Source of the DNA: Candidatus Zixiibacteriota bacterium
GTDB lineage: Bacteria; JAAXHH01
Assembly (NCBI GenBank): GCA_016867335.1
Contig: VGJU01000002.1
Span: forward strand, 1-62,281
Reading direction: 5' to 3'
Length of the DNA stretch: 62,281 nt
A model generated the notes under the pieces. That model made no database searches, was not told the origin of the DNA, and saw nothing but the letters and a program-made list of their open reading frames with translations. The translations under genes and the position numbers were made by a program. Below, in pieces: positions 9,684 to 44,823 of the stretch. The first letter of the stretch is position 1. Each line of letters opens with the position of its first letter.

Positions 9684-9851
9684 CTATGGCTCGCGTCCCG
9701 ACCGGGCGTGCGAAGTATAGATGTGCAAGACGGTAAACGCCAACGCGCCTAAAAAACCGACGCGAAAACCGTCTGCCCACCAAGGTTGAAGCATTACGGC
9801 CACGCTGGCGATCATACCCGTAAGGGCGAGACGGTCGAGGGTGCGGATCAT
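9684..9851 (-). CDS. Small two-TM membrane protein (55 aa) in the ABC operon
   Basis: MIRTLDRLALTGMIASVAVMLQPWWADGFRVGFLGALAFTVLHIYTSH... Its ATG overlaps the permease stop (TAATG). Confidence 0.75.
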   Translation of the reverse strand: MIRTLDRLALTGMIASVAVMLQPWWADGFRVGFLGALAFTVLHIYTSHARSGREP

Positions 9852-42158: not shown

Positions 42159-42288
42159 GACGGCTCCGAAGAAAGGGGAAGTTTGGGAAAATGCAGAAGG
42201 AGATAGGTTGTTTTCACAATGTACATGGAGGACGGTAAGTTTCAAGCAAATTACTCATGAAGTATTGCGAAAGGGTGTGGCCTTCCTG

Positions 42289-42317
42289 TTGCCACCGGCA
42301 CGCCGCACTCGTATATT
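42289..42317 (+). promoter_or_regulatory. Putative sigma-70 promoter
   Basis: TTGCCA-17 nt-TATATT. Confidence 0.5.
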
Positions 42318-42372
42318 GTGACCGGTCGCAGAATTCGTATCCCTTGCGAGGTATGGCAATTCGCTATGAGGT

Positions 42373-42645
42373 GCCGACTACATCGTTCTCACCCAGCGCC
42401 CCAACTACCAGGCCGAGGTCGGCAGGCGCAACGAGGTCGAGCGGGCGGGTTATATTCAGGCGAACAAGCTTCGGTTTCTCCGGCCCTATCAACTCAGTGC
42501 CATCCAGTGTCTTCAGGCGGCAGTCAGAGACGACAAGGCCCGCTTTCTGTTCGAGATGGCGACCGGAACGGGCAAGACACTCACTGCCGCAGCCGTCGTC
42601 AAGCTGTTCCTGCGCTCCGGCAACGTGTCGCGTGTCCTGTTCCTG
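42373..42645 (+). pseudogene. Fragment of a type I restriction (HsdR-like) DEAD helicase
   Basis: Own translation: NKLRFLRPYQLSAI...RFLFEMATGTGKTLTAAAVVKLFLRSGNVSRVLFL (Q motif, Walker A). No start codon; truncated. Confidence 0.8.
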
Positions 42646-42668
42646 GCGGCCGTTCTGGCGTGGCTTTT

Positions 42669-42863
42669 GCCGACCTGCCGGATCGATATGGGCGTGGCTT
42701 CGGTGTGGTCAACCTCAGCCAGATGAAGGTGTTCTACCTGGCCTGGCCAATTCTGCAGACACCGTCTGCGGAATTCCTCCTCACCGGTCTCGCCGCGGGG
42801 TTCCCATTTCCCTGGTCGGCCTATGTGCGCCTGCTGGAGGTGAAGGATGCACACGCACGAGCC
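42669..42863 (+). pseudogene. Fragment of a YhcG/DUF1016 N-terminal domain
   Basis: DLPDRYGRGFGVVNLSQMKVFYLAWPILQTPSAE...FPWSAYVRLLEVKD..AR. Confidence 0.75.
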
Positions 42864-43001
42864 TTGGATCTGCAGAAGGAGATCGTGGCGGAGATCAAGG
42901 GCTACGAAGAAGAGATCAGGAATTACGAATTGCAAATTAAGAATTGCCGAGACAAAATTGCTAAGGCGGTAAACAAGGTATGGGAAATCGGTGAAGAGTG
43001 A
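42864..43001 (+). pseudogene. C-terminal coiled-coil fragment of a type I R-M specificity (or M-S) subunit
   Basis: LDLQKEIVAEIKGY...DKIAKAVNKVW resembles the HsdS conserved helix. Confidence 0.55.
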
Positions 43002-43375
43002 AAACGTCATCCAGACAAAAAGCTATGCCTTTGCGGTACGGATCGTGAAGCTCTATCCGCACTTGGCAGTGGAAAAGAAAGAATATGTTTTGTCCAGACA
43101 GGTTCTGAAGAGTGGAACCAGCATCGGAGCCAATGTTGAAGAAGCCATCGGGGGACAATCCCGGTCCGACTTCCTTTCCAAGTTATCTATCGCCTACAAG
43201 GATGCACGGGAAACCTCCTATTGGCTCCGCCTGCTCAGGGACACGGACTACCTTACCTCCTCCCAGTTTGAGAGTATTCATACAGAGGCCGAAGAACTTT
43301 GCCGCATTATCTCAGCCATCCAAAAATCCACCAAGAGGAAGCAAATGGATCATTCGTAATTTCAAATTCGTAATT
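42921..43375. repeat. 24-bp imperfect inverted repeats built of AATTxxx heptamers, flanking the four-helix-bundle gene
   Basis: 42921-42944 is AATTACGAATTGCAAATTAAGAAT. The reverse complement of 43352-43375 is AATTACGAATTTGAAATTACGAAT (21/24 identical). Confidence 0.85.
42991..43359 (+). CDS. Four-helix-bundle protein (23S rRNA IVS protein / Avd-like family)
   Basis: KSYAFAVRIV, LSRQVLKSGTSIGANVEEA, DFLSKLSIAYK.ARETSYWLRLL. Confidence 0.9.
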   Translation: MKSENVIQTKSYAFAVRIVKLYPHLAVEKKEYVLSRQVLKSGTSIGANVEEAIGGQSRSDFLSKLSIAYKDARETSYWLRLLRDTDYLTSSQFESIHTEAEELCRIISAIQKSTKRKQMDHS

Positions 43376-43463
43376 GTCTTGTGCTGCTCAACGCCAACCG
43401 CGAACTGATCGTCCGCGTTTACTTCTTTCAAAACTTCCCCTTCACACTTTTCAGGGACTTTTA

Positions 43464-44823
43464 ATGAACCTTTTCAACGTCAGAGACTACGGCGCTTCCG
43501 GGGAGCCGTCACAGGACGCCGGTCCGGCGATACAGGCGGCGATCGATGCCTGCGCCGCATCGGGCGGAGGGATGGTCTATTTCCCACCCGGGCGGATACA
43601 CCACCGGCACGCTCTATCTGCGTAGCCACGTCCGTCTTTTTGTCGAATCCGGTGCGACGGTCTATTCGTCCAGAAACGCGGTACATTATCCGAAAACGGC
43701 GCTGTTCTACGGAGAAGACGTAGAACACATCACCCTCGAAGGCCGAGGTGTGATCAACGGACGAGGAGAGTACGAATGGCGGTTGACCGACCATGACGAC
43801 CGGTATATCCTTCCCAATCAGCGGCGGATGGAAGCGCTCGGCAAACACCTTATGCGCGCTTTTCCCAAACCCGACTTTATCGGCAATCTGGTCCTTTTGC
43901 TCCGCTGTCGGGACGTGCTGATTCAGGACCTTTCGTTTATCGACTCGCCTTCGTGGACCATGCATCTGTGCGCCTGCGAACGGGTGATCATCGACCGGGT
44001 CTATGTCCGCACAAGCAAAAAGTCCGGTGTTTGGGCCGACGGTATCGACCCAAACGGCTGCCGCGATGTGCGCATCTCCAACAGCACCATCGACACGGGT
44101 GACGACGCCATCGTGTTTTACTCCAACAGCGTCTACGGTCCGGCGCTGCCGTGCGAGAACATCACCGTCAGCAACTGTCGTCTTTCTTCGGCTTCGAGCG
44201 CGCTCAAGTTCTGCGACGGCAACGAAAATTGTGTGCGAAACGTGACGATAGACAACTGTGTCATTTCCGAATCCAACCGGGGTATCGCCTTTATGGTATT
44301 CGACGGCGGATACGTAAGCGACGTGGTCATTTCCAACCTCACCATCGACTGTCGGCGTTATGACTGGTTCTGGTGGGGCGAAGGCGATCCGCTTCATTTT
44401 CGCGTCATCCAGCGGAGCGAAATCCACCCGGAGATCAAACGTCCCGACGAACCACCGGTGGGCAGTATCCGCAATGTGCTGATCAAGAACGTGCTGGCGC
44501 GGGGCAAAGGTCCCAGCACGATACAAGGTCATGCGACCAGCCTGCTTGACGGCGTGACCTTTGAAGATGTCAGACTCATTTTGTCCACCGATCCGGACGC
44601 GCCATACGACAATGCTTCGCACGGGATGATCGTCGAACATGCGCGAAATCTTAGGCTGGACCATGTGGAGGTGGTCTGGGAAAATCCGTTGTCGGAGAAA
44701 TGGCAGATCGCGCTGTCGCTGGAGGATATACAGGGTCTCGAACTGTCCGGATTCAGAGGGCGAGGCGCGCATCCCGGTCATCCTGCGATCCGGATGCACC
44801 GAGTGGAAAAGGGCGAAGGATGA
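43464..44823 (+). pseudogene. Glycoside hydrolase family 28-like beta-helix protein with a frameshift near the 5' end
   Basis: MNLFNVRDYGA..AIQAAIDAC..GGMVYFPPG continues as YTTGTLYL in another frame (one extra base within 43587-43596). Motifs ADGIDP and IDTGDDAI. Confidence 0.75.

Follow-up and report, generated by a model that had tools for sequence, protein, structure and literature searches.

A four-helix-bundle gene between inverted heptamer arms outside rRNA genes: an ordinary, partly orphaned representative of a widespread class of cassettes

Intervening sequences (IVSs) of rRNA have been puzzling since about 1990, and to our knowledge the very large protein family PF05635/TIGR02436 has no assigned function. 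MITE-like and intragenic palindromic elements, such as the Rickettsia palindromic elements, are short, bounded by inverted repeats and translatable within a host protein. The IVS of Coxiella burnetii, as given in the available part of its description (PMC4990558), is 428 nt long, lies in helix 45 of the 23S rRNA and is closed by a 28-bp stem of terminal inverted repeats; three to four tandem heptamers of the sequence GACAGAT stand just before its S23p ORF and vary in number among strains, and the stem is cut by RNase III in vitro, the ends having been mapped by RACE. The same text cites ORF-bearing IVSs in Leptospira and others, and repeats an older suggestion that IVSs are relics of mobile elements (PMC4990558). 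It also bears out a statement of an earlier note on the DNA studied here, namely that the family of the four-helix-bundle protein includes 23S rRNA IVS proteins whose IVSs sit in RNase III-processed stems, and the relation to the protein Avd named in that note agrees with the homology held in the available part of PMC10053308. Beyond the Coxiella paper, the literature yielded a survey of diversity-generating retroelements (DGRs), a CPR preprint on rRNA inserts, which in its available part lists 23S_rRNA_IVP ORFs in both 16S and 23S inserts, and an expression table listing one such gene. The 2013 HEPN survey (PMC3710099) has no occurrence of IVS, 23S, Avd or PF05635, and, supplements and subscription papers aside, the literature search found no paper on an arm-gene-arm unit outside rRNA genes.

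The window analysed here is a stretch of 62,281 nt of a Candidatus Zixiibacteriota genome (contig VGJU01000002.1 of GCA_016867335.1), and within it positions 42921-43375 are confirmed as a unit of 455 bp that consists of an upstream arm, a four-helix-bundle gene and a downstream arm. The features of the locus are the following:

42370-42723, + strand: ResIII helicase fragment (N-terminal part with motif I), a pseudogene piece (PF04851)
42672-42863, + strand: DUF1016 N-terminal fragment, continuing in frame into the S-type tail (PF17761)
42866-43001, + strand: end of a methylase-specificity (M-S) restriction gene; its conserved-region helix (LDLQKEIVAEIK...VW...) includes the translated upstream arm
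42921-42944, + strand: upstream arm, about 3.5 units of a 7-nt repeat of the AATTACG type
42991-43359, + strand: four-helix-bundle protein gene, intact, 122 aa, GTG start (PF05635, TIGR02436)
43352-43375, + strand: downstream arm, an inverted copy of the upstream arm, with the TAA stop of the ORF inside it
43384-43410, + strand: remnant LLNANRELI of a second C-terminal conserved-region tail, in the frame 43360-43464 (compare loci L018, L019, L124 and L022)

The repeat search of the window pairs the two arms (42921-42944 with 43352-43375) over 24 nt, of which 21 (88%) are complementary, with 407 nt between them, and the 7-nt period appears as a 14-nt direct repeat within the upstream arm (42921-42934 and 42935-42948, 86%). 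Together with the ORF list, this search recovers all that had been read from the letters beforehand, namely an AT-rich array AATTACG-AATTGCA-AATTAAG-AAT upstream and its 21/24 inverted copy downstream, in which the TAA of ORF 42991-43359 lies at 43357-43359. The upstream arm had also been described as embedded in the coding tail of a restriction-modification (R-M) fragment, as RNYELQIKN, and it is indeed translated in the frame of ORF 42318-43001 (...EEIRNYELQIKNC...). The G+C content is 20.8% in the arms, compared with 45.9% in the cassette and 57.5% in the window. The 11-mer AATTACGAATT, with at most one mismatch, has four copies in the window, all of them in the arms, where 0.78 are expected and none of 100 shuffles holds four; its exact form occurs three times in the 4.38-Mb genome, each time beside one of the two PF05635 genes (twice in the window arms and once beside the other PF05635 match, on contig C105), and the reversed pattern, used as a control, has no copy in the genome. 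Likewise, the spaced pattern AATT-N3-AATT-N3-AATT has seven sites in the genome, six of these in the arms of the two PF05635 genes.

The gene between the arms belongs to the family without difficulty, since its matches exceed the curated cut-offs and cover the domain throughout: PF05635 is matched with E 9.2e-27 and 93.8 bits (cut-off 33.8) over profile positions 4-105 of 106, and TIGR02436, the "four helix bundle protein" model, with E 4e-31 and 107.4 bits (cut-off 24). The protein, with a predicted pI of 9.2, also matches PDB entry 2rld, which has five chains, with E 5.2e-35 over residues 4-116. Relatives are plentiful, 7998 among the 8000 candidates scored having E up to 1e-5, and the best of them, with names from Chloroflexi, Gammaproteobacteria and Terriglobia, reach identities of 72-86%. 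Between the window gene and nine relatives dN is 0.12-0.23, and dS is 2.2-2.7 in two pairs and saturated or not computable in the seven others; the two computable pairs give dN/dS of 0.056 and 0.072. Strong purifying selection therefore acts on the protein. No recombinase or nuclease domain was found in the cassette by Pfam and TIGR profile searches, and the genome encodes an RNase III gene. The cassette gene appears to have stayed intact while the host restriction gene decayed to fragments.

The only other PF05635 match of the genome lies on contig C105 (11665-12018; loci L002 and L204) and is broken by a TGA inside the match and by further stops. Its inverted 7-nt arms are still intact and are longer than those of the window (score of the inverted repeat 33; best lag 7). 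An M24 peptidase gene stands on one side of it, and on the other, upstream, a gene in the same orientation extends with its tail into the array. On the same contig, at 9807-9824 and about 120 nt away (about 1000-1190 of L204), an intergenic gap holds a gene-less tandem array of TTCGAAA; a second 7-nt array, of the GTGTGAA type, lies near it, the two are not complementary to each other, and both may be arm debris.

The arm-gene-arm architecture is the rule for this protein family. Two sets of homologues, together spanning 52-79% identity and many phyla, were compared: a genome set of 80 species-genome loci (55-79% identity, many phyla by record titles) which with the window makes 81, 77 of them with 120-nt flanks, and an independent metagenome set of 80 loci, 70 of them with full flanks. 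For each locus the upstream flank was aligned locally with the reverse complement of the downstream flank, and displaced flank pairs served as controls. In the genome set, 62 of the 77 loci score above every one of 75 displaced control pairs, the median inverted-repeat score being 38, compared with 20 in direct orientation and with a median of 15 and a maximum of 27 among the controls. Self-matches over 28 nt, taken at their best, reach a median of 0.75 at lag 7 both upstream and downstream; the figure for displaced controls is 0.39, and lags 5, 6, 8 and 9 yield 0.36-0.46. In the metagenome set, 63 of the 70 loci exceed all 57 controls, so that the enrichment of 7-nt-periodic inverted arrays around homologues, on which the earlier note had staked its proposal, is found in both sets.

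The loci that do not rise above the controls (15 of 77 and 7 of 70) are not uniform, since among the 15 of the genome set some have a direct array and then an inverted one after the ORF, and others have other unit types. When all 28 PF05635 matches of five other genomes are considered, 17 score above 27, a value that is a guide only for this set because the flanks there are somewhat longer; periods of 7 and of 8 nt occur, each copy has units of its own, each genome has two to eight family copies with different arms, and the three matches under the Pfam cut-off all fail the arm test. An arm period of 8 nt instead of 7 nt is seen in some distant paralogues (L096, L097, L105, L112, L120 and L122). 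Within this widespread class of cassettes the one in the window is a typical member, though partly orphaned. As for the origin of its arms, chance and plain AT-rich slippage are ruled out by the 11-mer counts and by the homologue flank statistics.

In the subfamily studied here the arms are built of units in which AATT is followed by ACG, AGG, AAG and so on, and their polarity is fixed: on the sense strand of the upstream arm ACG outnumbers CGT by 78 to 6, and in the reverse complement of the downstream arm by 88 to 11. The dominant unit is identical in both arms in 30 of 61 loci, whereas permuted pairing gives 10.9 +/- 2.5 and at most 20 in 2000 permutations, and the mean cosine similarity of the unit spectra between arms is 0.553, compared with 0.234 when permuted. 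In an unbiased consensus, derived from the best periodic stretch at 146 loci, 97 of 111 periodic upstream arms and 102 of 115 downstream arms contain AATT; of 199 units, 180 have A at position 5 and 130 have G at position 7, and position 6 is free. This core, AATTA-N-G, is kept although the synonymous sites of the ORF are saturated. There is thus a constraint on the sequence of the arm units and not on their complementarity alone, and that the core is conserved points to sequence-specific recognition, for which pairing alone does not account.

The inserts occupy the gap that separates the stop of a gene in the same orientation from the start codon that follows. Of the 115 loci with at least 700 nt on each side, 108 have an upstream neighbour in the same orientation, and in 82 this is true of both neighbours. 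In the 62 strong-arm loci the median length of the paired stretch is 29 nt. At the median, the upstream arm stops 14 nt short of the start codon and the downstream arm sets in 3 nt before the stop codon ends; in 34 of the 62 it overlaps the ORF or its stop, as it does in the window. The distances to the neighbours come from 74 strong-arm loci in which the ORFs on either side are co-oriented: relative to the 5' end of the upstream arm, the upstream stop has a median position of -1 nt (IQR -14 to +5), the next start follows the 3' end of the downstream arm by a median of 7 nt (IQR 1-14), and the median arm-to-arm span is 432 nt. Because the upstream stop and the next start lie at the arm ends, the arms fill the intergenic spaces, and, if they pair, the neighbouring stop and start would come to within about 10 nt of each other. 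By eye, four Bacteroidota loci (L038, L047, L075 and L076) apparently have the cassette between RND-type efflux adaptor and pump genes; the downstream gene starts alike in all four, and the arm units differ (ACG, AGG and AAG types).

Filled and empty forms of one site can be compared in Flavobacterium, at the site of locus L117, which is also the place of L048 and whose flanks are matched in 100 of 101 genomes of the genus. The comparison covers L117, 15 further junctions with flanks close together, and L063, and leaves out genomes with 1.4-2.9 kb of other genes in between. Three sites are filled (L117, L206 and L063, with 415, 403 and 404 nt between the flanks, respectively), ten junctions are empty, with 1-16 nt between the same stop and start, and in L207 the stop and start overlap as TAATG. 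Three more are intermediate, with inserts of 71, 123 or 193 nt and no gene (genomes L209, L222 and L223); the 193-nt insert has inverted arms of another unit type, and these gene-less inserts are scars or gene-less hairpins. Where the site is filled, the added sequence consists of precisely arm, ORF and arm and abuts the stop and the start of the neighbours, and no target-site duplication is visible when the three filled sites are compared with the ten empty ones. The three cassettes have ORFs of 70-75% nucleotide identity and flanks of 74-79%, and this similar divergence fits one old insertion that was inherited vertically. Each filled cassette has its own mix of units, matched in the partner arm, a pattern of compensatory change.

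The ten empty junctions supply the empty-site alleles in relatives that the idea of an insertion module had led one to expect. Of that idea, in which the arrays are the ends of the module, the ends are supported by the exact boundaries in Flavobacterium, and the word "mobile" has to be qualified, as the copies are few and divergent. Compared with transposons and MITEs, inverted repeats at exact ends combined with presence and absence are found in the Flavobacterium relatives; neither target duplication nor near-identical copies were found, the window's own genome having two divergent copies, and there is no sign of recent transposition in this genome or in the five others, where copies per genome are likewise few and divergent.

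At the site of the window itself, no empty form was found among 40 relatives (query 42250-44300), which share only the GH28 gene or the helicase fragment, and in two of the relatives the DNA upstream of GH28 has unrelated genes. Contigs of three of four other lake runs (X3, X4 and X5) have the same filled allele, no credible empty allele was found in the contigs of all four, and no tract-length variants were seen in the three. One contig of the lake run X9 joins 42944, the last base of the upstream arm, to 43122, resuming 177 nt later inside the ORF; with 27 letters on its shorter side, below the 85% likeness threshold, this junction may be another organism's cassette or an artefact.

What surrounds the cassette in the window is the debris of a restriction locus. 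The stop-to-stop frame 42370-42723 matches PF04851 (ResIII, E 8.9e-14) at profile positions 4-61 of 164 only, with 69-73% nucleotide matches in six sister-genus genomes, and the PF17761 match (E 8.7e-9) covers residues 119-182 of ORF 42318-43001 and profile positions 55-110 of 137; the ResIII fragment, the DUF1016_N fragment and the S-type tail are all that remains of a type I or M-S restriction-modification system. Over 40 residues the tail shares 90% identity with the end of the 610-aa N6_Mtase+Methylase_S gene in locus L018, and in L018 and the window alike its overlap with the start of the four-helix-bundle ORF is 11 nt. Loci L018, L019, L022 and L124 have the layout of the window in intact form: their M-S helix starts like the central conserved region (IVAEIEGYQ...), runs through the translated arm and ends in ...KIAKAVNKVWG, and after the downstream arm follows a second, open C-terminal conserved-type tail (AIVAEIEAEQ..LV.ANRELI...RVWGE), of which LLNANRELI is the sole surviving part in the window. 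In L016 and L021 the cassette is placed after a complete two-domain specificity gene. The window provides a clear instance of the restriction-tail lineage, whose upstream arm is translated within the last helix of the host protein. A promoter-like site lies at 42289-42317, and the same scan of the window found no terminator-like site. On the 3' side of the cassette, the GH28 glycoside hydrolase gene (43465-44823) is split into ORFs 43374-43625 and 43546-44823 by a frameshift at about 43587. One contig of the lake run X5 has one base fewer at 43587, so the frameshift may be strain variation or an assembly error.

The reading that we favour, with a probability of about 0.5, is that of a long-lived selfish cassette of the IVS type, whose arms would pair in a read-through transcript and which would be processed like an IVS stem. 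In its lineage the cassette would sit in the 3' end of an M-S restriction gene, which in the window would have decayed later, and it would be transcribed by read-through from the upstream gene. The arms would then pair in the transcript, forming a duplex of 24 bp here and of about 29 bp typically, which would loop out the gene and return the upstream stop and the downstream start to within about 10 nt. By likeness to the homologous 23S rRNA IVS, the duplex may be an RNase III substrate; cutting of this proposed kind would allow the insert to be tolerated inside operons and rRNA, and processing would keep it harmless to the host transcript. As for the four-helix-bundle protein, the leading guess is that it binds its own arms.

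Structure prediction speaks to this reading in two directions. The arm-arm closing stem is present in both the MFE and the centroid fold, and to that extent the suggestion of the earlier note that the transcript could fold into a stem looping out the ORF is supported; on the other hand, the overall stability of the 501-nt fold is not above that of shuffles (z -0.13; 43 of 100 shuffles fold as well), and no excess of G-U pairs is seen (35 G-U, 50 A-C and 122 other non-Watson-Crick pairs at 1925 arm positions of 62 loci; binomial p 0.13). No Rfam match was found at E up to 1 in 42300-43900. It also counts against the favoured reading that the window, lacking an intact upstream gene and having a frameshifted downstream gene, has no operon to insulate. 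Given the absence of a G-U excess, the unremarkable fold and the conserved core, there is room for roles at the level of DNA and of protein binding. In outline, the reading of the earlier note finds support in both of its alternatives.

At the DNA level, the arms would be terminal inverted repeats that serve insertion or excision as hairpins or a cruciform, with either a host enzyme or the four-helix-bundle protein as the actor, and any pairing of the RNA would be incidental. This is possible, if on balance doubtful: the arms are the exact ends of the insert, their complementarity is strand-symmetric without G-U excess, the core of the unit is kept while synonymous sites are saturated, gene-less or shortened inserts occupy the same Flavobacterium site (L209, L222 and L223), and proteins that are 72-80% identical across records of Thiotrichales, Burkholderiales, Terriglobia, Pontiella, Pseudanabaena and Desulfobulbia suggest transfer. 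However, the three filled sites have no visible target-site duplication, near-identical copies within a genome are lacking (two divergent ones here, and two to eight with different arms in five others), the cassette has neither a recombinase nor a nuclease domain, and three other lake runs have the same filled allele with no credible empty one. The conserved core, which goes beyond the needs of pairing, could also be explained if the arms were operator-like sites, at which a ring-forming protein binds the AATTA-N-G units, as RNA or DNA, and controls its own expression or stability, the inverted symmetry merely reflecting two binding arrays. The protein is basic (pI 9.2), the PDB entry of its closest solved relative contains five chains, distant paralogues show units peculiar to them, and the upstream arm, ending at a median of 14 nt before the start, overlaps the ribosome-binding region. 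Even so, nothing follows from the association of unit and protein, since the two share one line of descent, and operators would leave unexplained both the arms at the insert ends and the variable positions that co-vary between arms, which makes this explanation quite unlikely.

The loci with restriction genes suggest yet another role, that of a switch for the restriction enzyme, made up of the heptamer tract in the C-terminal helix of the M-S gene and of the spare tail, which would act through slippage or through recombination between the two IVAEIE-coding repeats. The tail in which the arm is translated is as long as the spare one in L018, L019, L022, L124 and the window, and the spare tail is still open in four loci; but with most cassettes outside restriction loci, with the restriction genes of the window reduced to fragments and with no tract-length variants in three other runs, such a switch is very improbable. 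Still further from the data, and close to negligible in our estimate, is the view of the gene as the Avd accessory protein of a diversity-generating retroelement, for which the homology of the family to Avd suggested in the available part of PMC10053308 and a weak bAvd match (PF22296, 23.2 bits) can be cited; the match falls below the 40-bit cut-off, and the genome, 99.98% complete by markers in 431 contigs, has no RVT_1 match, control genomes being positive. A DGR role was rejected on this absence of an RVT_1 match in the own genome. The favoured reading, a role at the DNA level and binding of the units by the protein are not mutually exclusive. A more far-reaching proposal, which we regard as unlikely, would make the protein the sequence-specific partner of its own arms and the whole a transposase-free, self-addressed mobile unit that installs itself at co-oriented stop-start junctions, of which rRNA IVSs, many so far unexplained heptamer repeats of bacteria and possibly Avd would be branches.

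If a gene between self-complementary arms, placed precisely between the genes of an operon, is the normal state, then the family gains a testable biology, in the form of arm pairing, RNase III cutting and binding of the arms by the protein. In that case the rRNA intervening sequences would be a special case of a general insert, and many short tandem repeats of 7-8 nt in bacteria would receive an origin. For annotation, such inserts would explain odd AT-rich tails on neighbouring genes, RNYELQIKN being an example, and mark the loci concerned as insertion scars.

In comparison with known systems, the nearest likeness is to the Coxiella IVS, in the available part of its description: the protein family is the same (S23p / PF05635), the lengths are 428 nt there and 455 nt here, next to a median arm-to-arm span of 432 nt among the relatives, and tandem heptamers stand before the ORF in both. 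Of the marks of an IVS, closing inverted repeats around an S23p ORF and heptamers before it are found here (21/24 arms, 7-nt period, predicted stem), whereas insertion in an rRNA helix is not, the flanks being restriction-gene fragments and a GH28 gene. The Coxiella IVS thus lies in rRNA and the window cassette outside it, in a protein-coding context; the unit is GACAGAT there and of the AATTACG type in the window; RNase III cutting is an experimental result there and a proposal for the window cassette; and the Coxiella ORF is decaying and probably untranslated, whereas the window ORF is intact and under strong purifying selection. With Avd, as described in the available part of PMC10053308, the protein shares a related four-helix-bundle fold and family and is likewise small and basic, but the genome of the window lacks an RVT_1 match and the bAvd model stays below its cut-off. 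The likeness to PDB 2rld is a sequence match to a structure-only entry for an uncharacterised protein. Like MITEs and palindromic elements, the window cassette is short and bounded by inverted repeats, and its upstream arm is translated in the host protein; unlike them, it has a conserved gene of its own, few and divergent copies and no visible target duplication, and its arms are tandem 7-8-nt units that differ from copy to copy. In print, as far as the literature covered here extends, this cassette class is known as rRNA IVS only, and the locus described here presents the same design at another host site.
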